Shown here: one piece after another, positions 12,981 through 64,000 of the stretch | How positions within the stretch are numbered: position 1 is the first letter of the stretch | Layout of the letters: the number at the start of each line of letters is the position of its first letter | Made by a program: the position numbers and the translations under genes | The notes under the pieces: generated by a model | Seen by the model: only the letters and a program-made list of their open reading frames with translations | What the model was told of the DNA's origin: nothing | The model's database searches: none | Source of the DNA: Paracoccaceae bacterium | GTDB lineage: Bacteria > Pseudomonadota > Alphaproteobacteria > MPNO01 > UBA830 | Assembly (NCBI GenBank): GCA_047638395.1 | Contig: JBLIMV010000020.1 | Coordinates: 39,101 to 103,100 of the forward strand | Direction: 5' to 3' | DNA: 64,000 nt

Positions 12981-14390
12981 TTAGGGTTTTGTATAGCCGT
13001 CGATAAAGTCGGCGAGATTGATGTCTTCATTCCCCGGAACGTAAATCTCGTCCGGGTAGTTGTCCTTGCGGGTCGCGTCGATGCCCATTTTGGTTACCAG
13101 GTGCGATCCGCCCGCCGGATCGTAGGACGCGGGATCGAGCGGTGAGCCTTTGGCGTATGGGATCATAAATGTGTCCCGGTCGGCGCGGACCCGCGTGGCG
13201 ATGGCATGCATCACCTCGGTATCGCTGGTGATGTCGACGTCATGATCGACCACCACCACGAATTTCAGGAACGGATCGGTGACGAAGGCGGCCATTGCGG
13301 CGGCTTTCGCCTCGCCTTCGATCTTGCGGTTGATCGCGATGTAGCACACGAAACGGAAACGGCCCGACCGCGGCATGTGGACGCCGGTGACTGTCCCGCA
13401 GGCGATTTTGACGGTCTCTTCTATGGCGGTCGACCGGATCACGCCTGAGAGCAGCAGGTTATCGGCATGGCCGACAAAGGCATTCTGGTAGAGCGGGTTT
13501 TTGCGGTGGGTAATCGCCAATATATCGAGTACCGGGTTCATGCGTTCGGGGCCGTAGGTGCCGGGGAATTCGCCGAATGGCGCTTCCGCGCGGCGTTCCT
13601 TCGGGCGGATCACACATTCGATGACCATTTCGGCGTCGGCCGGCACATTGAGCGGGATTGTCTTGCAGGGCACCAGCTGCACCGGGCGCTGCAGGATTCC
13701 CCCCGCAAGATGAAGCTCATTGGAATCGATCGGCGTGTAGCTCAGCGAGCCGAGGAAGAAGGCCGGGTGATGGCCGATGACGATGGCGATCGGGCAGGGC
13801 TCACCGCGTTCTTCATATTTCTTCCAGATCACGTTGCCGTCGGCAGTTTCCGACAGCTGCACGCCAAGCTCGTTCTTTGCGTGCACCTGGTGGCGGTAGA
13901 TGCCGATATTGTCGATGCCCGTATCCGGATCGCGCATCAGGGCGAGACCCGCCGTGATGAACTTACCGGCGTCGAGCTCGTGATAGGTGCAGATCGGGAA
14001 TTCCTCGATATCGATCTCATCCCCGGTTTTAACGATCTCGTGCACGGGACCGGTCTCGACCATGACCGGCTCAATCGGGTGGGATTCGCGCGCCGCGAAT
14101 TCGGTCAGAAAGGCTTTTTCGTCGCCTTCTTCCATGCCGATGCCATAGCGCAACCGGCTAAAGCTGCCATGCATATTGGCGACCAGCGGGTATTCCGAGC
14201 CTTTGACGTTCTCGAAGATGACGGCCTTGAAGTGGCCTTCTTTTTCCAGCCGGTGAAGAATACCGGAAACGCCGTATTTCGGATCGACTTCCTTGGTGAT
14301 GCGGATGATCTCTTCGGGGTGTTCTTTTTCGAGATACTCGATGAATCCGCGAAGATCCGATGTGTAGGGCTGGTTGGATAACCCGTCCAT
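12981..14390 (-). CDS. UbiD-family (prFMN-dependent) aromatic acid decarboxylase, paralog 1
   Basis: UbiD-like N-terminus DLRGFIEYLEKEHPEEIIRITKEVDP and overall length. Start set at the internal Met (MDGLSNQPY) preceded by SD aaagga, 26 codons into the track ORF. No UbiX (flavin prenyltransferase) is present in the window. Confidence 0.85.
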   Translation of the reverse strand: MDGLSNQPYTSDLRGFIEYLEKEHPEEIIRITKEVDPKYGVSGILHRLEKEGHFKAVIFENVKGSEYPLVANMHGSFSRLRYGIGMEEGDEKAFLTEFAARESHPIEPVMVETGPVHEIVKTGDEIDIEEFPICTYHELDAGKFITAGLALMRDPDTGIDNIGIYRHQVHAKNELGVQLSETADGNVIWKKYEERGEPCPIAIVIGHHPAFFLGSLSYTPIDSNELHLAGGILQRPVQLVPCKTIPLNVPADAEMVIECVIRPKERRAEAPFGEFPGTYGPERMNPVLDILAITHRKNPLYQNAFVGHADNLLLSGVIRSTAIEETVKIACGTVTGVHMPRSGRFRFVCYIAINRKIEGEAKAAAMAAFVTDPFLKFVVVVDHDVDITSDTEVMHAIATRVRADRDTFMIPYAKGSPLDPASYDPAGGSHLVTKMGIDATRKDNYPDEIYVPGNEDINLADFIDGYTKP

Positions 14391-14394
14391 GTTG

Positions 14395-14808
14395 TTATTC
14401 CTTTGATGTGTCTCTGGGCGGATCAATCGGCCCGCCGGCCTCGATCCAAGCATTGATGCCGCCTTCAAGATGCGCGACGGGGGTCAGACCCATGTCGTGG
14501 GCGGTTTTTGCTGCCAGCGCCGATCGCCACGCGCCTGCGCAGTAGAATATAAACTTTTTGTCTTCGGCAAAGAAATCGCGGTGATAGGACGTATCCGGGT
14601 CGATCCACATTTCCAGCATGCCGCGGGGCACGTGGCGTGCGCCCGATATACGGCCGGACTTGGCAACTTCGCGGATGTCGCGGATGTCGATAAACAGAAC
14701 GTCGTCGCGGCCGATCAGCGCGCGCGCGTCGGCAATGCTGATTTCTTCAACATGCTCATTGGCCTCGGCGACCATCTGTTTGACGGACCGCGTGATGTTG
14801 AGTGCCAT
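14395..14808 (-). CDS. Rhodanese-domain sulfurtransferase
   Basis: Active-site loop FYCAGAWRSA (Cys-X4-Arg) in a single rhodanese domain of 137 aa. Confidence 0.8.
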   Translation of the reverse strand: MALNITRSVKQMVAEANEHVEEISIADARALIGRDDVLFIDIRDIREVAKSGRISGARHVPRGMLEMWIDPDTSYHRDFFAEDKKFIFYCAGAWRSALAAKTAHDMGLTPVAHLEGGINAWIEAGGPIDPPRDTSKE

Positions 14809-20011: not shown

Positions 20012-21658
20012 ATGGGGATGACCCCGACATTGCCGCCGGATGGGCCAACGCTAAAGACCTATTACGAGTCCGGTGCATGGGGGTCGCAGACGATTTACGA
20101 CATTGTCCGGGCGCATAGCGCGGCCCGGCCGGACGCTGCAGCCGTCACCAGCAGTTTCCGGACGTGGTCATGGGCGGAACTTGTCGATCTGATCGACGCG
20201 TTCGCTGCGGATCTCGCCGACCGGGGCCTGGTACAGGGCGACACTATTTTTGTCGGCGCGCCAAACCGGATCGAAACCATTATTGCCCTGTTGGCGGCCT
20301 CCCGTGACGGTTTTGTCTGCTGTCCGTCCCCCCATCGCAATCACACCGTTGCTGAAATCGCCGCGATGTGTGAACGCGCAGCCTGTGCCGCTTATATCCA
20401 CTGTCCCGGCCACGGCTCGGACGCAGGGGGTGACGAGATTCTCGGCCTGATCGGCGCGCTGCCGTCACTTCGCCATATCTATGTATTACCCGGGGACGGG
20501 ATGGCGGCACCCTTCGAGGGTGCACTGAAAATCGCCCCCGACGATGCCGTACCACCCACCGGCAATCCCGATCTGGTTACATATCTCGCCTTCACCTCCG
20601 GCTCTACGGGGGCGCCGAAGGGCGTGATGCACAGCGATAACTCGCAGCTTGTGGCCGCGCGCGGTATCGCCGGCGCATGGGATCTCGACGCCGATACGGT
20701 AACGCTCTCGCTCAGCCCGTTCAGCCACAATCTGGGCTGCGGGACCCTGTGGACGTCTCTTGTCGTTGGAGGTGAATTTGTTCTTCATGACTGGTCGCGT
20801 GGCGAAAGCCTGCTGGACCATATCGAGACCGCTTGCGTCGATTACCTCGTCGGTGTGCCAACCCATGCGATGGACCTGCTGGCCGAGTTGAAGACGCGCG
20901 GTGCCAAGAAATACGATCGGCTCAAAAGCTTTCGTGTCTCGGCAGCGGCTTGTCCCGAACATGTTGCCGCGGCGTTGTACGATTATGGTATCCCGGTCCA
21001 AAAGGGCTATGGCATGACCGAAACCAATGGTCATCAATACGGCCAACCGGGGGATTCCCGCGATCTGGTGATCGGTACGTCCGGCGTGTGTTGTCCCGGG
21101 TATGAATTGCGTATTTTCGACGCGAACGATCCGGATCGCGCAGCAGAACCGGGTATGTCGGGGCTGGTCGGCGGCAAAGGGGCGTCACTGATGCTCGGGT
21201 ACTTTAACGATCGCAAGGCGAGCGAAGACTGCATCAATGCATCCGGGTGGTTCCTGACGGGTGATCTCGGCATGATCGACGAAAATGGCTACCTGCGGCT
21301 GACCGGCCGCGCGAAGGAACTGATTGTGCGCGGCGGGCACAACATCAATCCGAACCTGCTCGAAGATCTTGCTTTGCGGCACCCGGCAATCGATCTCGTG
21401 GCCGCAATCCCGGTGGCGGACGACCGGCTCGGCGAACGGGCCTGCCTTGCCGTGATGTTCGAGGACGGGCAGGCCGTCCCGGCATCGGAAATACTGACGC
21501 ATCTCGCCGATGAAGGCCTGTCGCGCTATGACATGCCTGAATTCTGGCTGCCGCTTGCCGACATTCCGCTGATGCCGAACGGCAAGATGGAAAAACTGGA
21601 AATCATCCGCCGCGTGCGCGATGGTTCGCTGGTGCCCGTACCGGTCGCGGCGGGCTGA
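20012..21658 (+). CDS. AMP-dependent synthetase/ligase (acyl- or aryl-CoA synthetase)
   Basis: AMP-binding motif FTSGSTGAPKGV plus YGMTET and GWFLTGDLG. 548 aa. Confidence 0.85.
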   Translation: MGMTPTLPPDGPTLKTYYESGAWGSQTIYDIVRAHSAARPDAAAVTSSFRTWSWAELVDLIDAFAADLADRGLVQGDTIFVGAPNRIETIIALLAASRDGFVCCPSPHRNHTVAEIAAMCERAACAAYIHCPGHGSDAGGDEILGLIGALPSLRHIYVLPGDGMAAPFEGALKIAPDDAVPPTGNPDLVTYLAFTSGSTGAPKGVMHSDNSQLVAARGIAGAWDLDADTVTLSLSPFSHNLGCGTLWTSLVVGGEFVLHDWSRGESLLDHIETACVDYLVGVPTHAMDLLAELKTRGAKKYDRLKSFRVSAAACPEHVAAALYDYGIPVQKGYGMTETNGHQYGQPGDSRDLVIGTSGVCCPGYELRIFDANDPDRAAEPGMSGLVGGKGASLMLGYFNDRKASEDCINASGWFLTGDLGMIDENGYLRLTGRAKELIVRGGHNINPNLLEDLALRHPAIDLVAAIPVADDRLGERACLAVMFEDGQAVPASEILTHLADEGLSRYDMPEFWLPLADIPLMPNGKMEKLEIIRRVRDGSLVPVPVAAG

Positions 21659-23759: not shown

Positions 23760-25289
23760 ATGAACGAAGAAGCGCCGAACAAGGCCGCAAATGCCCAGAA
23801 CGAACCTATTCAGGACCTCCGGCAATGGCTGGAAGCGGTCGAGGAGATCAATGAGCTGGTGAAGGTGTCCGAACCTGTCAGCCGCGATCAGGAAATGAGC
23901 GCCATTGGGTACCTGCTCGCCAAGCAGCAACCTTCGCCGACGGTGATGTTTGAAAAAACCGTCGGTTTTGAAGATGACGGAATCGGCGCGCGGTTGCTCT
24001 GGAACCTGGCTGGACCCAGCTTGAAGCGTATTGCGATTACGCTCGGCGAGTCGCCCGAAATGAACACGACCGACCTGATCGAAAAGGTCAAAGGCAAGCT
24101 GATGAAGCGCATCCCGCCGCGCGAAGTCGCTGCGGACGAAGCGCCGGTGTTCGAAAACACGCTGACCGGCGACGATATCGATCTCGACAAGTTTCCGATC
24201 CCGATGCACTGGCCGCTGGATGGTGGGCGTTATCCCGGCACCGCCGATTGCGTCATCACCCGCGATCCCGATAGCGGCTATCTGAATGTCGGTACCTACC
24301 GGATGATGCAGCAGGGCAAGCGCGAAGCCGGTCTGTACCTTTCGCCCGGCAAGGATGCGCGGTTGCATATCGAACGCGCTTGGGAGCGCGGTGAATCGAT
24401 TGAAGTTGCAGCGGCCTGGGGGGTCGATCCGATCTTCATGCTGGTCGGCTCACAGGGCTTCCCGAAGAACATCTCGGAATACGAATTTATCGGTGGTATC
24501 CGCGATCAGGCGGTGTCTGTCGTGAAGGGTAAAACCACGGACCTGCTGATCCCCGCCAATGCGGAACTGGTGATCGAAGGCGTGCTCAAACCAGGCTCGA
24601 TGAAGGGCGAAGGCCCGTTCGGTGAGTTCACCGGCTATTATGGCCGGCCAGAGGGTGATGCGCCGCTGGTGGAAATTACCGCGCTTCATCATCGCAATCA
24701 GCCGATCATGACGAATGCGCTGATGGCGGACTATCCGTCCTGCGAACAGAGCGGGTTTTTCGCCATTATCCGCTCGGCGCGTGTGTGGAACGATTTCGAC
24801 AAGCTCGGTATTCCGGGGATTCAGGGCGTGTATTGTCACCCCGCCGCCGCCGGTGGCTGGGGTATGACGGTCATCAGCGTCGAGCAGCGTTATGCCGGCC
24901 ATGCAGCGCAGGTACTGGCGCTGGCTGCGCAGGTGCCGGGCGGCGCCTATTACACGAAATGGATCATTGCCGTTGATGAGGATGTCGATCCCTGCGATAT
25001 GGATCAGGTCCTCTGGGCGATGGCCAGCCGCAGCAACCCGATTGATGATATCGATATCCTGCGCAATACGTGGAGCACCCAGCTCGACCCGAGCCAGTAT
25101 CCGCCCGAGAACCGCCCCTATGGGTCAAAGGCGCTGATCAATGCGTGCAAGGATCACAAGAACCTGAAGAATTTTTCCAAGCGGACAATGCTCAGCAAGG
25201 AAATCTACGACAAGGTGTCTGCAGACTGGGAACGGCTGGGGCTGCCGGGAGAAGTGCCCCATGTCCGTAATTTCGAAAAGGACGTGTGA
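23760..25289 (+). CDS. UbiD-family decarboxylase, paralog 2
   Basis: 509 aa. UbiD-like central region (ITRDPDSGYLNVGTYRMM, GEGPFGEFTGYYG) matches paralog 1 (PFGEFPGTYG). Confidence 0.85.
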   Translation: MNEEAPNKAANAQNEPIQDLRQWLEAVEEINELVKVSEPVSRDQEMSAIGYLLAKQQPSPTVMFEKTVGFEDDGIGARLLWNLAGPSLKRIAITLGESPEMNTTDLIEKVKGKLMKRIPPREVAADEAPVFENTLTGDDIDLDKFPIPMHWPLDGGRYPGTADCVITRDPDSGYLNVGTYRMMQQGKREAGLYLSPGKDARLHIERAWERGESIEVAAAWGVDPIFMLVGSQGFPKNISEYEFIGGIRDQAVSVVKGKTTDLLIPANAELVIEGVLKPGSMKGEGPFGEFTGYYGRPEGDAPLVEITALHHRNQPIMTNALMADYPSCEQSGFFAIIRSARVWNDFDKLGIPGIQGVYCHPAAAGGWGMTVISVEQRYAGHAAQVLALAAQVPGGAYYTKWIIAVDEDVDPCDMDQVLWAMASRSNPIDDIDILRNTWSTQLDPSQYPPENRPYGSKALINACKDHKNLKNFSKRTMLSKEIYDKVSADWERLGLPGEVPHVRNFEKDV

Positions 25290-31891: not shown

Positions 31892-34606
31892 CTAACGGCC
31901 TGTGCTGGAAAAGCTGACTCTGTCGTCCCGGCGGAACGATTTCATGATTGGCCCAGTCATATAATCCCGGTCCGAGTTGGCGATTCCGATCCGTATCTCC
32001 TGGTCTGCGTTGGAGAGGGTTTTCGGTTGGGTGATCGGGGCTTTCAGGAATGCAGATGGGACACTCGCCTCTCCCGTGTCACGCGTTTCCCGGTCACGAT
32101 CGGAACCTTCGCTTACGGAGACCCGCGTAGCGTCGCCATCGCCGTCACGTTCATCGCCCCCAATTTCTCTCACTGTGACTGTGTCACCGGGCTCTATCTT
32201 TCCAGGCAAATCCGTGACGACCCGGCCCCCCGGTAGCTCGGTCGGTGTGGGGCTGACAATTATCGCCGGGCGTGGATCGCCGATAAAGGGTGCCGGTGCC
32301 GGTGGCGGTGTCCACGGGCCTTCGCGGCGCCAGCCGAATGAGCCGTCCTTGGTTTCGCCAAATACATGGCCTGCATGTTCGCCGGTGCCGACAGCGAAGG
32401 TCCGACCGTCCGGCGTTTTGATGATTTCAAGCTTGTAGACCGAGCCTTTGAACAAGGCTTCTTCCATGACACCAACGCTTTCACCTGCAAGCCGCGGCGG
32501 GCGCGGCACTATCGTCGTCTGCGTCCTCGCGCCGGGGACACTGGCCGACGCAAGGCCGTCCTTGGTTGTTACAATGGTGGTGGCGTCCGCGGTTTTCTGC
32601 CTGGCGCTTTCCTCGCGCTCGATTCTGGTTTCTACGGCCTGACCTGCCTTGTCCGCTTCCGAGGGTGTTTCCCCTTTTCTCAATGCATCTGTCATGGCTT
32701 CCGCTGATTCCCGATTGGAGAACCCAAACGTCTTGCCGGATTTCGGATCTGTCACGACGAATGTATCGTCTTCACCGGATTGCTTGTCGACGCGGATGGA
32801 CGGTGCGCGGAATTCCTTGGGCACACTGTCTCTGAGCGCATCGACAAATTCGGTGGATCTGGCGACCGCGCCCGTGTCGCGTGTCGCGGGATCGCTGTCG
32901 GGGCCATAAGTCTCCTCCAGCACGTCTTTGAATGGCTTACCATTGCGCAGATCAGTTGCCATTTGCTGAGCGAGAGAGGGGTTTTTCGTAATAACCTCCT
33001 CACCGGTATCCGGCACGAAAACGTAATAATTGCCCTCTTCGTCTGCGCTCAGTCGGACCGGGGTGTCGCCGAAAGCACCGCTATAGGCGATATCCGTTCG
33101 CCTCCTGTATGCAAGATCCGTTTCCGTCGTGCTACGCCCCTCGATGGCGGCAAGAACACCAACGACATAATTTGTCAGATCTGAATTGTCTTCCGGCAGA
33201 CTTGCCGGAATTTGCAGTGTCTGACCGAGCGTCAATTCATCGACAATGAGGCCATTGGCTGCCTTGATATCATCTACCGTTACGCCATAGCGGTCCGCCA
33301 GATCTTCCAGGGTCTCATTTACCTTGACGTCATGAGGGGGCGGTATGTTTTCGCCGCGGATCGCCGGCTCGGTCGGGAGGTTGTTCACGAACGTAGAAGC
33401 ATTCGCGTCCTGTATCGGGAAATCGTCGGCCGACTTGTTTTCCCAATCAGAATCGTTGAACGGGTATCTTATTTGGCCGTTTGCATAGGCAGTGTTCAAT
33501 TCCGCTGCTTTTTTGTATTTATCAGGCCAGTCCGCCTGATTATCGGGCAGGGCAACGGATTCACCGGTGCGCGGGTCTGTAAAGGAACCGCCGCCGCCGA
33601 AGGGGTCAAAATTCCCGGTGGTTGCGTTCTGGGCATAGGGGCCGGGATTGAATGCGCGGCCGCCAGTCGGGAAAGTGAGGGCCGGCGTGTCGCCGATGAA
33701 AGCCGGCGTCGCATCGAACCGGCTTCCCGCCTGCTCGTTTGTGGGCGGAGGGGTTGAATTTTTCATATCCTCCACCGATTTGGTCGCCCAGTCGGGGTCG
33801 CTGAACGGATAAAACGATATCTCGCCGTTAACGTAGGCGGAATTCAGATCGTCGGCATGCTGGACGCGTTCCGGCCATTTGCTGCGATCATCATCAAGAT
33901 CCACGACGTCTCCGGTGTCCGGGTCGAGAAAGACGTCAAAGCCTCCACCGAAAGGGTCCACATTCCCGGATGTCAAATTCTGGGCATAGACTCCGGTCGG
34001 ACCGACGGCCGGGCCGATCGGCCGGATGCCTGTCGTCCCACCGCAGCCACTGGGGCCACATTGGCCAAACCCTGTCTGGGGTACTGTTGGCCACTGGTCG
34101 AGGCCGCAGCTGGGCCCGCTGCCGCTGCCGCTGCCGCAGCCATAGCCGCCATTGGGCCCGGCGCCGAATACGGTCTCGGCGACGCCACCAGTACATTGAC
34201 TTCCAGAGCATTGATCTTGATTCCAGCCTGTTGGGATGACGATGGTCCGGCCGTCAGGGTCAACTCCGATAATTGCAGTTGGTTTCGACGACGAACTGTC
34301 CTCCGGGTTGACCGGTTCTTGGTTGCCGGGGCTTACCGGGCTGCCGAGCTGATTGTTCAAGTTCAGTAAGCCGGCGCCGGTTTCGGTGCCGCTTGGCGGC
34401 GCGCAACACGGCCCGGAAATTCCGCCGGAATTCCAGTTGATGGTGCCGTCCGCATTGATGGTAACGCTGTTCGAGCCGTTTGGGATACCCACGGGGCAGG
34501 TCCCGGAACTACCCAGATGGCTGCATTGGGCCTGTGCTTCTTTGGTCGATGTCCCGACGAACCCGGCACCAGCCATAACAGCGATCAGAAATAGAAATTT
34601 ACGCAT
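31892..34606 (-). CDS. Large secreted Cys-/Gly-rich repeat protein with a LysM domain (hypothetical)
   Basis: 904 aa with signal peptide MRKFLFLIAVMAGAGFVGTSTKEAQA. Cys-rich N-terminal region (QCSHLGSSGTCPVG...CCAPPSG...CGSGSGSGPSCG). Two about 90-aa internal repeats (GVYAQNLTSGNVDPFGGGFDV...DDRSKWPERVQHADDLNSAYVNGEISFYPFSDPDW and GPYAQNATTGNFDPFGGGGSF...DNQADWPDKYKKAAELNTAYANGQIRYPFNDSDW). LysM-like segment VKVNETLEDLADRYGVTVDDIKAANGL..LTLGQTLQIP. Starts 33 bp downstream of the OMP gene on the same strand. Confidence 0.7.
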   Translation of the reverse strand: MRKFLFLIAVMAGAGFVGTSTKEAQAQCSHLGSSGTCPVGIPNGSNSVTINADGTINWNSGGISGPCCAPPSGTETGAGLLNLNNQLGSPVSPGNQEPVNPEDSSSSKPTAIIGVDPDGRTIVIPTGWNQDQCSGSQCTGGVAETVFGAGPNGGYGCGSGSGSGPSCGLDQWPTVPQTGFGQCGPSGCGGTTGIRPIGPAVGPTGVYAQNLTSGNVDPFGGGFDVFLDPDTGDVVDLDDDRSKWPERVQHADDLNSAYVNGEISFYPFSDPDWATKSVEDMKNSTPPPTNEQAGSRFDATPAFIGDTPALTFPTGGRAFNPGPYAQNATTGNFDPFGGGGSFTDPRTGESVALPDNQADWPDKYKKAAELNTAYANGQIRYPFNDSDWENKSADDFPIQDANASTFVNNLPTEPAIRGENIPPPHDVKVNETLEDLADRYGVTVDDIKAANGLIVDELTLGQTLQIPASLPEDNSDLTNYVVGVLAAIEGRSTTETDLAYRRRTDIAYSGAFGDTPVRLSADEEGNYYVFVPDTGEEVITKNPSLAQQMATDLRNGKPFKDVLEETYGPDSDPATRDTGAVARSTEFVDALRDSVPKEFRAPSIRVDKQSGEDDTFVVTDPKSGKTFGFSNRESAEAMTDALRKGETPSEADKAGQAVETRIEREESARQKTADATTIVTTKDGLASASVPGARTQTTIVPRPPRLAGESVGVMEEALFKGSVYKLEIIKTPDGRTFAVGTGEHAGHVFGETKDGSFGWRREGPWTPPPAPAPFIGDPRPAIIVSPTPTELPGGRVVTDLPGKIEPGDTVTVREIGGDERDGDGDATRVSVSEGSDRDRETRDTGEASVPSAFLKAPITQPKTLSNADQEIRIGIANSDRDYMTGPIMKSFRRDDRVSFSSTGR

Positions 34607-36446: not shown

Positions 36447-38141
36447 ATGACGGACCTCACCCAGAGTTATGCCAGCGGAACATCCGACGTGCCCTTAATC
36501 GGGGCCGCCATCGGCGCACAGTTTGACGCTGCGGTGGCGCGTTGGGGCGCGCGTGATGCACTGATTGTCCGCCAGCAGGATGTGCGCTGGTCCTGGTCTG
36601 ACCTGAAAGAACGGGTGGATGCCTTCGCCGCCGGGCTGATGGAACTCGGGCTTGAACCCGGTAGCCGCATCGGCATCTGGGCGCCCAATTGTGCCGAATG
36701 GACGATCACGCAGTTTGCCACCGCCAAGGCCGGTCTGATCCTGGTGAATATCAATCCCGCTTACCGGCTGGCCGAGCTTGAATATGCGCTGAACAAGGTG
36801 GGCTGCACCGCGCTGGTGACGGCGGCGGCGTTCAAGACCAGCGATTATCTCGGCATGATCCGCGAACTGGCACCGGAACTGGATACGGCGGCACCGGGTG
36901 AGCTGCACGCCCCGCGTCTGTCCGATCTGCGCCATGTAATCCAGATCGGTGGCGGCGATGTGCCGGGCACCTGGGCGTTTGAAGACATACTGGCGCGCGG
37001 CAAAGCGGCGGGGATGGCGGTGGTCGACGCGCTGGCACCCAGCCTGCAGTTCGATGATCCGATTAACATCCAGTTCACCAGCGGTACCACCGGGTCGCCC
37101 AAGGGCGCCACGCTGACCCATCACAATATTCTGAATAATGGCTTCTTTGTCGGCCGCGCGCAGGCGCTGGGTGAGGACGACCGGATTTGCATCCCCGTGC
37201 CGCTCTATCATTGTTTCGGGATGGTGATGGGCAATCTGGCCTCCGTCACGCATGGCGCGGCGATGGTCTATCCCGGTGAGGGGTTCGATCCCCTGGCGAC
37301 GCTGGAAACGGTGGCTGCCGAAAAATGCACGGCGCTCTATGGCGTGCCGACCATGTTTATCGCCCAGTTGCAGCACGCGGATTTCGAAGGCTTCGATCTG
37401 TCGAGCCTGCGCACCGGTATCATGGCGGGCTCTCCCTGCCCGGTGGAGGTGATGAAACAGGTCATCGACAGGATGCATATGGAAGATGTGACCATCGCCT
37501 ATGGCATGACCGAGACCAGCCCGGTATCGACCCAGACCTCGGTCGACGACCCGGTCGAGCGGCGGGTATCGACCATCGGGCGTATTCAGCCGCATCTCGA
37601 AGTAAAAATCGTCGACGGGGACGGGCGTATCGTGGCGCCGGGCGTGACGGGCGAGCTGTGTACCCGCGGTTATTCCGTGATGCGCGGTTACTGGGATGAA
37701 GCCGCGCGCACGGCGGAAGCGATCGATGCCGGAAAATGGATGCATACCGGCGATCTCGCGACCATGGATGCGGCGGGATATTTCAATATCGTCGGGCGGA
37801 TCAAGGATATGGTCATCCGGGGGGGCGAAAACCTGTATCCGCGCGAGATCGAGGAGTTTCTCTATCGCCACCCCAAGATCGCCGATGTTCAGATCTTCGG
37901 CGTCCCGGACGAGCGCTGCGGCGAGGAACTGTGCGCCTGGATCAAACTTGCCGAGGGCGAGGCGGCGCTGGCCGACGAAATCACCGGTTTCTGCGCAGGC
38001 CAGATCGCCCATCAGAAGGTGCCGCGCTACATCCGTTTCGTCGATGAATTCCCCATGACGGTGACCGGAAAAATCCAGAAATTCGTCATGCGCGACCAGA
38101 TGATCGAGGAGCTTGGGCTGAAAGCGGCGAAAACCGCCTGA
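36447..38141 (+). CDS. AMP-dependent acyl-CoA synthetase/ligase
   Basis: [27 protein letters not shown] and GKIQK motifs. 564 aa. SD sequence gggaggaag. Confidence 0.85.
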
Positions 38142-60245: not shown

Positions 60246-60587
60246 ATGGTCAGCGATCACAAGGAATTCGCCAAGGAAGTTGACGCCCGGGCGGCCAAAC
60301 TGTTCAAGGCGGCCCCCGACACGATGCGGGCATTCCGCGGTTTGATGGAAACCGCCGGCAAGGAAGGCGCGCTGGATGCCAAGACCAAGGAGCTGATGGC
60401 GCTTGCCGTGGGCATCGCCGTGCATTGTGAAGGCTGCATTAATTTTCATACGCGGGCGGCTATAAAAAAAGGCGCGACGCGCGAAGAAGTGGCGGAAACG
60501 GCGGCGGTCGCCATCGAAATGGGCGGTGGCCCCGCCGCGGTTTACGGTGCTCAGGCGCTCGACGCATTCGATCAGCTTTCGGGCTAG
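60246..60587 (+). CDS. Carboxymuconolactone decarboxylase family (AhpD-like) protein
   Basis: 113 aa. The HCEGCINFH CxxC-containing CMD/AhpD signature is present. Start at MVSDHKEF after AGGAG, 61 codons into the track ORF. Confidence 0.8.
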   Translation: MVSDHKEFAKEVDARAAKLFKAAPDTMRAFRGLMETAGKEGALDAKTKELMALAVGIAVHCEGCINFHTRAAIKKGATREEVAETAAVAIEMGGGPAAVYGAQALDAFDQLSG

Positions 60588-60719
60588 ATAAAAAATATCT
60601 ACGAGGTCTAAAATTTACTTTGACCCGTATCCGGAACAGTAGCATTTTCCCGACGGATTAATTTCGTCGGTGACGTGTTTCACGTGCGGCTTTGCGCCTA
60701 TTTGGAGGCCTATTTAAGA

Positions 60720-62372
60720 ATGTCTGGTGGTTTTTCTACTGGCCTGTTCCGGGCTGGTCTGTTGTCTGTTGGAATAGCTCTGACGGCCGGTTTTGTCGTC
60801 CCCGGTGCCTCTGCACAGGGGACGGAGCTGTCTGACCGGGGCAAGGCGGCGGATAAGAATAAGAACGGCGTCATCGACCGCAACGAAGCGGGCGGTCCGT
60901 TGAAGTCCAATTTCGATGATATGGACTGCAACAAGTCCGGCACGCTCGATGGCGCGGAAATCAGCGGATTTTTCACCGGCGTCGAATGCCCTAAACCTGC
61001 CGCTGCCGCGCCCGCCGCAACACCGGTCATGGCGAATAAATCTGTGCCGCCGTTGTCTGACCGCGGCAGGGCGGCAGACAAGAACAAGAACGGTGTCATC
61101 GGGCGCGACGAGGCGGGAGGCCCGCTGAAGTCCAATTTCGATGATATGGACTGCAATAAATCCGGCACGCTCGACGGTGGGGAGATCAAAGGCTTCTTCA
61201 CCGGTGAGGAATGCCCGAAACCGGTTGCAGGGACCCCGGCGACTGGTGCGGCGCCGAAGACGGCAGCCAAACCTTCGGCGGCGCCCGGTAAAAAGGCCGG
61301 CGGCCCCCGCGCACGCGCGGTCAGGGTTGATGCCGTGATCGTTGAGCCCAAATCCCAGACCTACCCCGTGATCGGCCGGCTGGTTGCCCAGCGGACCGGC
61401 AACGTGGCTGCCCGTATCAACGGCGCGGTTGTTGAAATGAACGTAAATGTCGGTGATCGCGTCAAAAAGGGGGATATTCTTGCTGTCCTGGCGATAGAGC
61501 GGCTGACCGCGCAGCGCGACAAATATGCCGCCGCGTTATCCACCCGGCGCGCGATGGTGCAGACCGCTCAGGCCGAAGCATCGAAGACCGCGCAGGAACT
61601 TCGCCGGATGTCGAACCTCAAGACATCTTCAGCGTTTTCCCGCGCGCGTTACGAAGACCTTCAGCGTGACGTCGATGCCCGCCAGGCAACACTGGTAGAG
61701 CGTCGCTCACAGCAGAAAGAGGCGCAGGCCGAGCTTGATCAGGTGGCTATCGACCTGAATAACGGTCGCATTCGCGCACCGTATGACGGTGTCGTCAGCG
61801 AAAAGCACACGGAAATCGGCTCTTACGTAAATGTCGGGAACCCGGTCGTCACGCTGATCAGCGATACTGAGATCGAGGTCGAGGCCGAAGTGCCATCCGA
61901 TCGCATCGCCGGTTTGACAACGGGCAGGGTCGTGCGTTTCCGTCTTGATGACGGAACGGATCACCGGGCAATCGTCCGGTCCATTATTCCGCGCGAAAAC
62001 GCCCGCACACGGACACGCCCGGTGCGGTTTACGCCGACATTCGGCGAGAAATCATCCCGCTTTGCCATCAACCAAAGCGTGACTGTCCTGGTGCCTATCG
62101 GGAAGATCCAGGAGGTCGTGACGGTTCACAAGGACGCCATCGTCCATCGTGGTCCGAACCGGGTCGTGAGCATCGTGCGGAAGGGCAAGGCCTTTCCGCG
62201 CCAGGTAACGCTCGGCGTGGCGGTCGGGAACCGGTATATCGTCGAAAAAGGGCTGAAGGCGGGCGACGTGGTCGTGACCCATGGCAACGAAACGCTGCCG
62301 CCGGGCGCCCAGGTTCGCATTCTGACCGGTGGTTCCCCGCGCGCCAATGGCGAGAAGACACAGACCAACTAG
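60720..62372 (+). CDS. RND efflux membrane-fusion (periplasmic adaptor, HlyD family) protein with N-terminal duplicated EF-hand pairs
   Basis: The C-terminal 330 aa form a typical MFP: lipoyl and beta-barrel segments around GDRVKKGDILAVL, a coiled-coil hairpin, RAPYDGVVSE and PVVTLIS. The N-terminal 200 aa carry two copies of an approx. 75-aa unit. Each unit has two canonical 12-residue EF-hand loops, DKNKNGVIDRNE (or DKNKNGVIGRDE) and DCNKSGTLDGAE (or DCNKSGTLDGGE), in the pattern D-x-N-x-[NS]-G-x-[IL]-x-x-x-E. The RND pump gene follows. Confidence 0.8.
   Translation: MSGGFSTGLFRAGLLSVGIALTAGFVVPGASAQGTELSDRGKAADKNKNGVIDRNEAGGPLKSNFDDMDCNKSGTLDGAEISGFFTGVECPKPAAAAPAATPVMANKSVPPLSDRGRAADKNKNGVIGRDEAGGPLKSNFDDMDCNKSGTLDGGEIKGFFTGEECPKPVAGTPATGAAPKTAAKPSAAPGKKAGGPRARAVRVDAVIVEPKSQTYPVIGRLVAQRTGNVAARINGAVVEMNVNVGDRVKKGDILAVLAIERLTAQRDKYAAALSTRRAMVQTAQAEASKTAQELRRMSNLKTSSAFSRARYEDLQRDVDARQATLVERRSQQKEAQAELDQVAIDLNNGRIRAPYDGVVSEKHTEIGSYVNVGNPVVTLISDTEIEVEAEVPSDRIAGLTTGRVVRFRLDDGTDHRAIVRSIIPRENARTRTRPVRFTPTFGEKSSRFAINQSVTVLVPIGKIQEVVTVHKDAIVHRGPNRVVSIVRKGKAFPRQVTLGVAVGNRYIVEKGLKAGDVVVTHGNETLPPGAQVRILTGGSPRANGEKTQTN
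60829..61224 (+). repeat. Intragenic tandem duplication (two approx. 170-bp units at about 85% identity) encoding the EF-hand pair modules
   Basis: Unit 1 (about 60829..60998) and unit 2 (about 61055..61224) share long identical runs, for example gaagtccaatttcgatgatatggactgcaa and atccggcacgctcga. Confidence 0.7.
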
Positions 62373-62444
62373 ACGGCGACCAACTAGACGGCGACCAATT
62401 AGGCGGCACGACCGCGCCACTCGTTAAAGGAACGGAGCAGGCGG

Positions 62445-64000
62445 ATGAACATAATCCGGCTTTCAATCGAGCGTCCCATTGCCATTGTTGCCATGGTCCT
62501 GATGATCATTCTGTTTGGCTATGTCGCCCTGCAGCGTATCCCGATTCAGATGGCACCCGACGTGCGTCAGCCGATTATTATCGTCAAAACGACCTGGCCG
62601 GGTGCCGCCCCGCAGGAGGTTGAGCGCGAAATCATCAATCCGCAGGAAGATGAGCTGAAAGGTCTTGAAGGCGTCAAGAAAATGTCGTCGAAGGCCCAGC
62701 GGAACCGCGGTGAGGTGACGCTCGAGTTCGGTCCCGAGATCAATTTCGACCGTGCGTTGCTGCTCGTTGCCAACCGGCTGGACCGTGTCTCCGGGTATCC
62801 GGAGGAAGCGGACGAGCCCGTATTGTCGACCTCGGGCACCGAGGACAACGCGATTGCCTGGTTTATCATCACGCGCCAGGAGGGGAATACCCGGCCGATG
62901 GTCGCCAATGGTGACTTCCTCGCGGATGTCGTCCAGGAGCGGATTGAGCGGGTCGAAGGCGTTGCCGGCGTCAATATCTTCGGTGAAACCGAACGCGAAA
63001 TGTCGATCACGATCACCCCGGAAAGCCTGGCGCGTTACGGGATGACCGTCAGTGAAGTATTGCGTCGACTGCGCGCGGCCAATGCGTCGATCACCGGCGG
63101 CGATGTCGAAGAGGGCAAGCGGCGCTATGTCGTCCGGACCGAAGGCGATCTGAACACCACGCAGCTTGTCGAAGACGTGGTTCTGCGCAGCGACGGCGAC
63201 GGCGGCAGTGGCAGTGGTGGTGTCGGTCGTGTTGTCGTGCGCGATATCGCCGAGGTGTCTATCGGTTACAAGAAAGCGCAGGCGCGTCTGCGGATGCTCA
63301 ACCGGCCCGCGCTCGCCTTCAATATCACCCGCGAACAGGGCGCAAACGTCATCAAGACCATGGCGGATGTGCGAGAGGTCGTCGAAGGCCTCGCCGACGG
63401 GCCAGTGCAACGCCAGGGCCTGTTGATCGAACAGGTTTACGACGAGACCGATTACATCAATTCGTCGATCGATCTGGTGCGCACCAACATTATCTACGGC
63501 GGCATTCTCGCGATCATCGTGCTCATGATTTTCCTGCGGTCATGGCGGCCGACGGCTGTTGTGGCAATGTCTATACCGGTTTCCGTGGTCGGCTCGTTCG
63601 TCGCCATGGCGGTGCTCGGCCGCTCGCTCAACGTGATCAGCCTGGCTGGGATCGCGTTCGCCGTCGGCATGGTGGTCGATGCTGCCATTGTTGTGCTCGA
63701 AAACATCTTCCGTCTGCGTCAGGAAGGCCGCTCCCGCGCGGAAGCTGCTTATTACGGCGCGCAACAGGTCTGGCCTGCCGTTCTCGTGTCCGCGCTGACG
63801 ACCGTTATGGTGTTTATCCCGATCCTGATCATGGACCTGGAGGTCGGACAGCTGTTCCGTGACATCGCGGTCGCCATCTCGGTATCGGTCATGCTGTCCT
63901 TGCTGGTCGCCGTCACACTGATACCGGCGCTGGCAAACGGGCTTCTGGGCGGCATGAAAACTGAAACGGGCGGATTACGCATTCCGGTGGTTGACGATTT
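62445..64000 (+). CDS. RND-family efflux transporter (AcrB/HAE-type), partial: continues beyond window end
   Basis: Not in the ORF track (no stop in window). The ATG at 62445 follows aaggaacggag. MNIIRLSIERPIAIVAMVLMIILFGYVALQRIPIQMAPDV is a classic AcrB N-terminus, with TM1 and a large periplasmic loop. Confidence 0.85.
   Translation, partial: MNIIRLSIERPIAIVAMVLMIILFGYVALQRIPIQMAPDVRQPIIIVKTTWPGAAPQEVEREIINPQEDELKGLEGVKKMSSKAQRNRGEVTLEFGPEINFDRALLLVANRLDRVSGYPEEADEPVLSTSGTEDNAIAWFIITRQEGNTRPMVANGDFLADVVQERIERVEGVAGVNIFGETEREMSITITPESLARYGMTVSEVLRRLRAANASITGGDVEEGKRRYVVRTEGDLNTTQLVEDVVLRSDGDGGSGSGGVGRVVVRDIAEVSIGYKKAQARLRMLNRPALAFNITREQGANVIKTMADVREVVEGLADGPVQRQGLLIEQVYDETDYINSSIDLVRTNIIYGGILAIIVLMIFLRSWRPTAVVAMSIPVSVVGSFVAMAVLGRSLNVISLAGIAFAVGMVVDAAIVVLENIFRLRQEGRSRAEAAYYGAQQVWPAVLVSALTTVMVFIPILIMDLEVGQLFRDIAVAISVSVMLSLLVAVTLIPALANGLLGGMKTETGGLRIPVVDD

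Follow-up and report, generated by a model that had tools for sequence, protein, structure and literature searches.

Periplasmic adaptors of resistance-nodulation-division (RND) efflux pumps have been studied intensively, and those of the AcrA, MexJ, TriAB and MacA type share a plan in which lipoyl, beta-barrel and membrane-proximal domains and a long alpha-hairpin form a core recognised by the TIGR01730 model, with the permease encoded downstream; none with folded Ca2+-binding domains is known to have been characterised. Here we describe an adaptor gene near the right-hand end of a 64,000-nucleotide stretch of contig JBLIMV010000020.1 from a Paracoccaceae bacterium (hereafter the window, with positions counted from its first letter). 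This adaptor shares the core and the downstream permease, but it has neither a lipobox nor a transmembrane anchor, no outer-membrane factor gene adjoins it, and it carries about 165 extra residues between signal peptide and core, made up of two EF-hand-pair units and two disordered linkers. The 550-residue product thus consists of a signal peptide, two 58-residue EF-hand-pair units, a Pro/Ala-rich linker and a normal adaptor core. The EF-hand unit is not specific to pumps, and its sequence and distribution suggest a portable, disulfide-stapled periplasmic EF-hand pair that is found on several kinds of exported protein.

Features of this arrangement are known from other systems. The N-terminal tail of CusB is disordered, contains three Met residues, binds Cu(I) or Ag(I) and passes Cu(I) to CusA. 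It is likewise a metal-binding, N-terminal periplasmic extension of a soluble RND adaptor, although here the extension is built of folded EF-hand lobes with oxygen ligands, and the partner permease has no CusA Met triad. In RTX proteins, which leave the cell by type I secretion, Ca2+-driven folding acts as a ratchet. Lanmodulin (LanM) of Methylorubrum extorquens is a free-standing periplasmic lanthanide binder of about 110 residues with four EF-hands, whose loops have Pro at position 2 and carboxylates at positions 1, 3, 5, 9 and 12; the adaptor extension shares its periplasmic site (predicted here) and the Asp at loop position 9, but the units are separate beads within a 550-residue adaptor. 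Secreted bacterial EF-hand proteins also include EfhP of Pseudomonas aeruginosa and the periplasmic CaBP of Caulobacter (PMC13171946). These also have a Sec signal peptide followed by periplasmic EF-hand motifs, but they are free-standing whereas the EF-hands of the adaptor form a fusion module, with unit-specific flanks (LSxRAK ... GFFTGxxCP) and a co-varying Cys pair.

The identity of the gene as an RND adaptor, proposed in a first-pass annotation made from the sequence, is borne out by the NCBIfam RND_mfp model TIGR01730, which matches residues 204-534 with 185.8 bits (cut-off 94.9), by Pfam matches to HlyD_3 (73 bits) and HlyD_D23 (64 bits), both above their cut-offs, and by the permease gene that follows. 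The protein is 100% identical to a public entry (P0001) annotated 'RND family efflux transporter MFP subunit' (MFP, membrane-fusion protein), from a metagenome-assembled genome (MAG) named Paracoccaceae bacterium. The open reading frame (ORF), 60675..62372 on the + strand, offers two possible starts, GTG at 60675 and ATG at 60720; the ATG is most likely the real one, since a GGAGG motif precedes it and the resulting Met1 is invariant across 49 aligned homologues. In a full-length AlphaFold2 (AF2) model built on a 49-sequence alignment, the core has a predicted local distance difference test score (pLDDT) mostly of 88-97, with hairpin helices at residues 259-299 and 308-347 (41 and 40 residues) flanked by beta domains, and the nearest solved structures are TriAB (6vej), MexJ and MacA. 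It is largely established that the gene product is the ordinary periplasmic adaptor of a two-gene adaptor-permease RND pump. The features of the locus are collected in Table 1.

Table 1. Features of the EF-hand adaptor locus, in window positions (aa, residues of the adaptor; TRF, Tandem Repeats Finder).
Feature	Position	Strand	Details and basis
Shine-Dalgarno-like GGAGG	60704..60708	+	11 nt before ATG 60720; read from sequence
RND periplasmic adaptor gene with EF-hands	60720..62372	+	550 aa plus stop; ORF list, Pfam, TIGR01730
Sec-type signal peptide, predicted	60720..60815	+	aa 1-32; predicted cleavage between ASA and Q33
EF-hand-pair unit 1	60822..60995	+	aa 35-92; loops 60852-60887 and 60924-60959; Cys70/Cys90; loop pattern, AF2
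Inter-unit linker, Ala/Pro-rich	60996..61046	+	aa 93-109; AF2 pLDDT <50 at residues 91-108
EF-hand-pair unit 2	61047..61220	+	aa 110-167; loops 61077-61112 and 61149-61184; Cys145/Cys165; loop pattern, AF2
Linker from EF units to core, Pro/Ala/Lys-rich, flexible	61221..61310	+	aa 168-197; AF2 pLDDT <50 at residues 164-195
Adaptor core	61311..62330	+	aa 198-537; membrane-proximal, beta-barrel and lipoyl domains plus long alpha-hairpin; AF2, TIGR01730
15-bp tandem repeat GACCAACTAGACGGC x3.0	62363..62407	+	93% matches, TRF; spans the stop codon into the adaptor-permease spacer
RND permease gene, 5' half	62445..64000	+	runs off the window; ACR_tran 409 bits; starts 72 nt downstream of the adaptor

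The EF-hand pairs are real, canonical and strongly constrained. Four 12-residue loops that fit the EF-loop pattern begin at residues 45 (DKNKNGVIDRNE), 69 (DCNKSGTLDGAE), 120 (DKNKNGVIGRDE) and 144 (DCNKSGTLDGGE), and each has ligands at positions 1, 3, 5 and 12, Gly at position 6 and a hydrophobic residue at position 8, all of which are invariant or nearly so among 80 unit sequences. Lys or Cys occupies position 2, the residues at positions 3 and 5 are either Asn/Asn or Asn/Ser, and position 9 is Asp in three of the four loops. A scan with EF-hand models, named at the outset as the check to be made, gave scores above the cut-offs on the full adaptor for Pfam EF-hand_1 (34.4, cut-off 25.4), EF-hand_6 (33.2, cut-off 25) and EF-hand_7 (30.6, cut-off 30), and higher scores on the N-terminal fragment; the first loop of each unit presumably fails the PROSITE pattern PS00018 only at the 13th position, which is Ala. 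Across all six frames of the window a relaxed form of the loop pattern has only two other matches, and four such loops in one frame over a span of 110 residues therefore far exceed what chance would give. Inside each unit the loops start 24 residues apart, with 12 residues between them, a much tighter arrangement than in calmodulin-type pairs, and the gap between the loops of the two units is 39 residues. The full-length model has the units as two confident small domains, at about residues 35-90 and 110-163 (pLDDT about 83 and 79), and a single unit modelled alone from the 80 unit sequences reaches a pLDDT of 87 and a predicted TM-score of 0.72. Foldseek matches of this single-unit model in the PDB are exclusively EF-hand lobes, including those of troponin C, calcineurin B, the regulatory domain of the ATP-Mg/Pi carrier and calmodulin, with query-normalised TM-scores of 0.55-0.66 and with E-values above 0.1, as expected for a query domain of only 61 residues. 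The second loop pair had been taken as a repeat of the first, but although all four loops are canonical it is not an exact copy, as loop 3 has Gly at position 9. All other listed relatives with four or six loops have Asp or Glu at this position in the first loop of each unit, and the Gly may be a lineage-specific weakening of one site.

The predicted topology of the extension fits the periplasm, a point for which the first-pass annotation had proposed a check. The N-terminus, MSGGFSTGLFRAGLLSVGIALTAGFVVPGASA followed by QG, combines a basic n-region (R11) and a hydrophobic core of 14 residues with an A-x-A motif that precedes Gln33, an invariant residue, and this A-x-A/Q junction is common to dozens of relatives, EF-bearing and EF-less alike; we infer that it is a cleaved Sec signal peptide. 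In EF-less relatives the core follows the signal peptide directly, at the position of the EF-to-core linker, and the EF module is hence an insertion between the two. The two cysteines of the unit, one at position 2 of the second loop and the other 20 residues on, co-vary strictly: among 202 distinct units chosen by the family motif EAxGP, both are present in 142, neither in 60, and a single Cys in none. Such co-variation implies that the pair would form a periplasmic disulfide, in keeping with an oxidising, periplasmic location.

The unit is also found on proteins that have nothing to do with efflux. A profile of the 80 units was searched against 1.84 billion cluster representatives (50%-identity clusters) and gave 4128 matches at E <=1e-3, of which 431 had E <=1e-10. 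A word-index search with a 62-residue unit matched only six short proteins. Among the best 150 representatives, 56 contain the whole unit with its flanks, and these comprise 17 adaptors, 28 proteins of no more than 200 residues and 11 longer non-adaptors; in nearly all 56 the first unit begins at residue 13-60. Six of the non-adaptor carriers are verified by Pfam: three TRAP (tripartite ATP-independent periplasmic) DctP solute-binding proteins, two hydrolases of the metallo-beta-lactamase fold and a dienelactone hydrolase (the carriers noted are P0187, at L085:181-1452, P0197, P0213, P0127, P0165 and P0246). The gene for P0187 is followed directly by a fused DctQM gene, which places it in a genuine TRAP system. 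The carriers are laid out alike, with a signal peptide, (G)KELSxRAK..., the EF pair, ...GFFxGxxCP, a short linker and then the cargo. A 99-residue protein on a 129-kb contig (P0147), confirmed by the word-index search, consists of a signal peptide and a single unit, and therefore the module also exists without cargo. The other 94 of the 150 representatives are secreted multi-EF-hand proteins that match the loop-helix-loop core only.

This distribution bears directly on the suggestion, made when the locus was first annotated, that the EF-hands provide Ca2+-responsive gating or assembly of the pump. In such a switch Ca2+ on the EF lobes would alter adaptor conformation or hexamer assembly and so tune efflux. 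The canonical and strongly conserved EF-hand pairs, their position at the membrane-proximal end of the adaptor next to the permease contact, and the retention of a single acquisition across a whole clade are all in keeping with a switch, and Asn at loop positions 3 and 5 may lower affinity. However, the identical kind of unit occurs on TRAP binding proteins and hydrolases, its copy number varies freely from 1 to 3, the 30-45 residue linker to the core is disordered and would be a poor transmitter of conformational change, and Ca2+ in seawater is high and nearly constant. The suggestion did not fare well against these observations, and we regard a gate or assembly switch as unlikely.

We favour instead, at about even odds, that the unit is a cargo-independent accessory module, constitutively loaded with Ca2+, that stabilises, retains or positions the protein to which it is attached and that takes part in neither Ca2+ sensing nor substrate handling. 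One adaptor clade has acquired a portable EF-hand-pair module, with units of about 58 residues, between signal peptide and core. After Sec export and cleavage before Q33 each unit would bind two Ca2+ ions, a disulfide between the second-loop Cys (position 2) and the Cys 20 residues later would lock it, and the folded, acidic units would then be strung like beads along disordered Pro/Ala-rich linkers at the N-terminal, membrane-proximal end of the adaptor; the module would fold only outside the cytoplasm. Independence of cargo is suggested by the same position of the module on TRAP binding proteins and hydrolases and by the drift of its copy number from 1 to 3. A Glu in position 12 of the loop favours Ca2+ over Mg2+, and seawater contains about 10 mM Ca2+; Ca2+ binding by the units is argued for by this Glu, by the oxygen ligands at positions 1, 3, 5 and 9 and by the seawater concentration. 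At this concentration ordinary EF-hands would stay saturated, a point against a sensor role.

Several points weigh against this view. Metal binding, metal selectivity, signal-peptide cleavage and the disulfide are all read from sequence; the Pfam-verified non-adaptor fusions number only six, and many of the 28 short whole-unit matches are evidently fragments at contig ends. Asn at loop positions 3 and 5 could lower affinity, and Ca2+ occupancy could vary in brackish or host-associated settings. Like the adaptors, two of the three non-adaptor cargo families that were verified work with inner-membrane transporters, so that the module may have a role in docking at a membrane transporter. The concrete benefit of the module could lie in stability, retention, positioning or help with export.

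The last of these benefits could be the essential one. The unit would then be a portable tag, placed after the signal peptide of varied Sec substrates in some marine Alphaproteobacteria, that stays unfolded in the low-Ca2+, reducing cytoplasm and snaps shut on Ca2+ and disulfide formation when it reaches the periplasm, its folding either ratcheting export, as a Sec-pathway counterpart of the RTX ratchet, or protecting and retaining the cargo. We think it improbable, though worth keeping in view, that this is what the module does.

Docking likewise deserves separate consideration. Ca2+-loaded units could bind a common envelope partner, whether the surface of the inner membrane, a transporter's periplasmic face or some other protein, and so keep transporter accessory proteins near the membrane in the manner of lipid anchors or dockerins. 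The unit does sit, on a flexible linker, where other adaptors have a lipid or transmembrane anchor, and the adaptors and the TRAP DctP proteins both serve inner-membrane transporters. But the EF-less relatives are also without an anchor, so nothing has been replaced; metallo-beta-lactamase-fold and dienelactone hydrolases carry the unit too; its conserved residues are almost all metal ligands or hydrophobic core, which leaves little conserved surface; and the Pfam scan of the adaptor gave no dockerin match. Tethering of this kind seems doubtful to us.

The resemblance of the unit to lanmodulin can be traced to its loop spacing. The nearest solved sequences are the lanmodulins 8fns and 6mi5, which align ungapped over LanM EF1-EF2 with the same 12-residue spacing (E about 1e-4), and the LanM model NF053806 is the top NCBIfam match for the N-terminal region; both results arise because the loops of the unit start just 24 residues apart. 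About 12 residues between adjacent EF loops has been described as a hallmark of LanM (PMC11576760). Together with Asp at position 9 in three of the four loops, these similarities would fit short-spaced EF pairs that bind rare-earth ions selectively and are linked to efflux or sensing. However, NF053806 reaches only 36.7 bits against a cut-off of 135, and the full set of LanM loop residues is not found in the four adaptor loops, which have no Pro at position 2 and Asn for Asp at positions 3 and 5, and hence fewer carboxylates. Many of the 94 secreted representatives that match the loop-helix-loop core only have the 24-residue spacing as well, so it is a common trait of bacterial secreted EF-hands and not diagnostic of LanM, and none of the ten large ORFs of the window that were scanned is lanthanide-related. 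Rare-earth binding is the reading to which we give least credence.

A role in Ca2+ or metal efflux had also been suggested for the locus, and here the permease is informative. An RND permease gene lies directly downstream of the adaptor in every related locus examined, and full-length orthologues have about 1060 residues (one is L003:11750-14932). A full-length orthologue scores 582 and 480 bits on multidrug-type NCBIfam models (cut-offs 1250) and 302 on the CusA/CzcA model TIGR00914 (cut-off 701); it is below every NCBIfam RND cut-off but nearer the multidrug type than the metal type, with 27% identity to AcrB and 24% to CusA. The HAE-1 proton-relay residues (the Asp-Asp pair of transmembrane helix (TM) 4 and the Lys of TM10) are not found in the orthologue: TM4 reads AVGMVVDAAIVVLEN (VDAA) and has only one Asp, like CusA, in the place of the VDDA of MdtB and AcrB, and in TM10 Asn stands at the position of K940 in AcrB and E939 in CusA. 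In the alignment none of the three positions of the CusA Met triad (M573, M623, M672) is Met. The permease is a divergent RND protein, and nothing in it points to export of Ca2+ or heavy metals.

These data tell against capture of a hard cation, Ca2+ or another divalent, by the EF units and its transfer to the pump in the manner of CusB and CusA. Such funnelling would be consistent with a metal-binding N-terminal extension in the same topological place as the CusB tail and with the CusA-like single-Asp form of TM4, but the permease is closer to the multidrug models, although below both cut-offs, its Met-triad positions are not conserved, the adaptor reaches only 102 bits on the CzcB/NccB model TIGR00999 (cut-off 319), the unit is present on non-efflux proteins, and there is no obvious value in exporting periplasmic Ca2+ into sea water with 10 mM Ca2+. 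We consider funnelling very unlikely, and the proposed metal efflux role finds no backing in the permease. In the longer contigs L002-L004 no outer-membrane factor gene adjoins the adaptor-permease pair. Long alpha-hairpins are of the kind that docks TolC-like outer-membrane channels, and the hairpin of this adaptor suggests that an outer-membrane factor is used; the pump is probably a tripartite exporter with a channel encoded elsewhere.

The EF-bearing adaptors are common among uncultured Alphaproteobacteria. A homologue search found 943 sequences, of which the best 120 were listed and examined, and the listed homologues have 2, 4 or 6 EF loops, corresponding to 1, 2 or 3 units and to lengths of about 470, 550 and 590-630 residues. 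The loops are almost invariant in the family, as DxNxNGVIDRxE and DCxKSGxLDGxE. All matches in species-representative genomes are to uncultured alphaproteobacterial MAGs, with names that include UBA830 (89% identity), Rhodospirillaceae, Defluviicoccus, MarineAlpha3 and Hyphomicrobiaceae; several are from TARA or other marine samples, and the family is mostly marine to judge by record names. Homologues at 45-49% identity mostly have no units, their signal peptide standing directly before the first core strand (...AAAQ, cleavage, QPPAVVSVDEVR...QTVPVIGRLVA). The alignment of homologues, which had been recommended to establish whether the extension is lineage-specific, puts the EF-bearing adaptors in a single alphaproteobacterial clade: in a neighbour-joining tree of the core, which was built without bootstrap support and leaves out ten distant EF-bearing sequences that the anchor motif missed, the clade has no EF-less member, and forms with one, two and three units are interleaved within it. 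On the simplest reading, the module was acquired once and units have since been gained and lost repeatedly. A 617-residue adaptor from a different subfamily (P0177) has EF-hand motifs at its C-terminus (residues 443-536) and not at its N-terminus, and would represent a separate event in which EF-hands were fused to an adaptor of the RND/HlyD type.

At the DNA level the two units of the window gene form a repeat (60829-60997 and 61054-61222; 169 nt, spacing 225) with 84% identity, in agreement with the two units of about 170 bp and 85% identity reported from the first reading of the sequence. The conclusion drawn then, that the duplication is recent or the copy number still varies, holds only in its second part. 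Between the two units the proportion of synonymous differences (pS) is 0.55 and the synonymous divergence (dS) about 1.0, so that synonymous sites are near saturation and a recent duplication is ruled out, whereas the nonsynonymous divergence (dN) is 0.06-0.09; with dN/dS at about 0.07-0.09, the units are under strong purifying selection, and the 84% identity reflects such selection on an old duplicate. Their synonymous divergence is nearly equal to that between the window gene and orthologues 84% or 65% identical to it, and the signatures of unit 1 (...DGAE...GVECPxPA) and unit 2 (...DGGEIK...ECPKPV) are both common to orthologues that are 84-95% identical. Variation in copy number is, by contrast, evident among the relatives, with their 1-3 units. 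In the closed 6.1-Mb MAG genome represented by L004/L013 the three units are 97-99% identical (pS 0.02-0.07), so that recent duplication does apply to that lineage, within-gene pS spans 0.02-0.83 across 24 multi-unit loci, and units within one protein share lineage-specific residues that are missing from the orthologous units of distant proteins. The family thus shows continuing unit turnover or gene conversion, with the window gene at the old end of the range.

The literature search found no paper on EF-hand fusions to RND adaptors, in line with the earlier remark that the architecture had not been characterised; as far as we could find, it is undescribed in the searchable literature, yet common in marine metagenomes. 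The EF-bearing adaptors with a full unit make up at least 17 clusters at 50% identity, a whole clade from uncultured, mostly marine Alphaproteobacteria. The wider point is the reuse of a compact, apparently disulfide-stapled 58-residue EF-hand pair on several kinds of periplasmic protein. Should the unit turn out to act generally as a Ca2+-dependent tag that promotes stability, retention or export, it would represent a new type of accessory domain in the periplasm and might serve in practice as a small metal-dependent fusion tag; if it is passive decoration only, the gain is an improved annotation of proteins that are now labelled simply 'RND MFP subunit'.

The 15-bp tandem repeat at the end of the adaptor gene is real and spans the stop codon, as first noted, although it has 3.0 copies rather than 2.5 and extends further, to 62407. 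It gives three in-frame TAG codons, the first of which (62370-62372) is the adaptor stop. Relatives vary at this site. The close relatives L005, L003 and L008 possess the motif twice, with a second copy that is degenerate and contains no stop codon; one further, perfect copy is present in the window and in contig L001, which is identical to it, and L006 shows another small duplication in this place. A functional repeat acting in read-through, frameshifting or extension was rejected because of this variation and because the protein stops at the first TAG, at the very point (...TQTN) where its orthologues also stop. The repeat is the product of replication slippage in the spacer, with no visible consequence. 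In the distant relatives L013, L017 and L021 the stop codon of the adaptor and the start codon of the permease overlap (ATGA), so that their translation may be coupled there, and the window has the 72-nt spacer instead.

Upstream of the adaptor, a 130-nt region contains two short inverted repeats, CCGACG-N9-CGTCGG (60650-60670) and ACGTG-TTT-CACGT (60673-60685), which could be operator sites or chance matches. An Rfam scan of the whole window gave no match, so there is no riboswitch or other known RNA upstream of the adaptor, and promoter and terminator scans were at chance level. Directly upstream lies a gene (60246-60587, + strand) for a 113-residue AhpD/CMD-family protein with a CxxC motif (HCEGC), whose best NCBIfam match is an arsenosugar-biosynthesis-associated peroxidase-like family (57 bits, cut-off 120). 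A conserved partnership with the adaptor was rejected, as such a gene is upstream in only 8 of 39 EF-bearing loci, all from a close clade. Elsewhere in the window there are two paralogues of UbiD-family decarboxylases (12981-14468, - strand, and 23760-25289, + strand) and two AMP-binding ligases (20012-21658 and 36447-38141, both + strand), which hint at aromatic-acid metabolism with no visible link to the EF-hand adaptor. A 904-residue ORF (31892-34606, - strand) has a single LysM domain as its only Pfam match.

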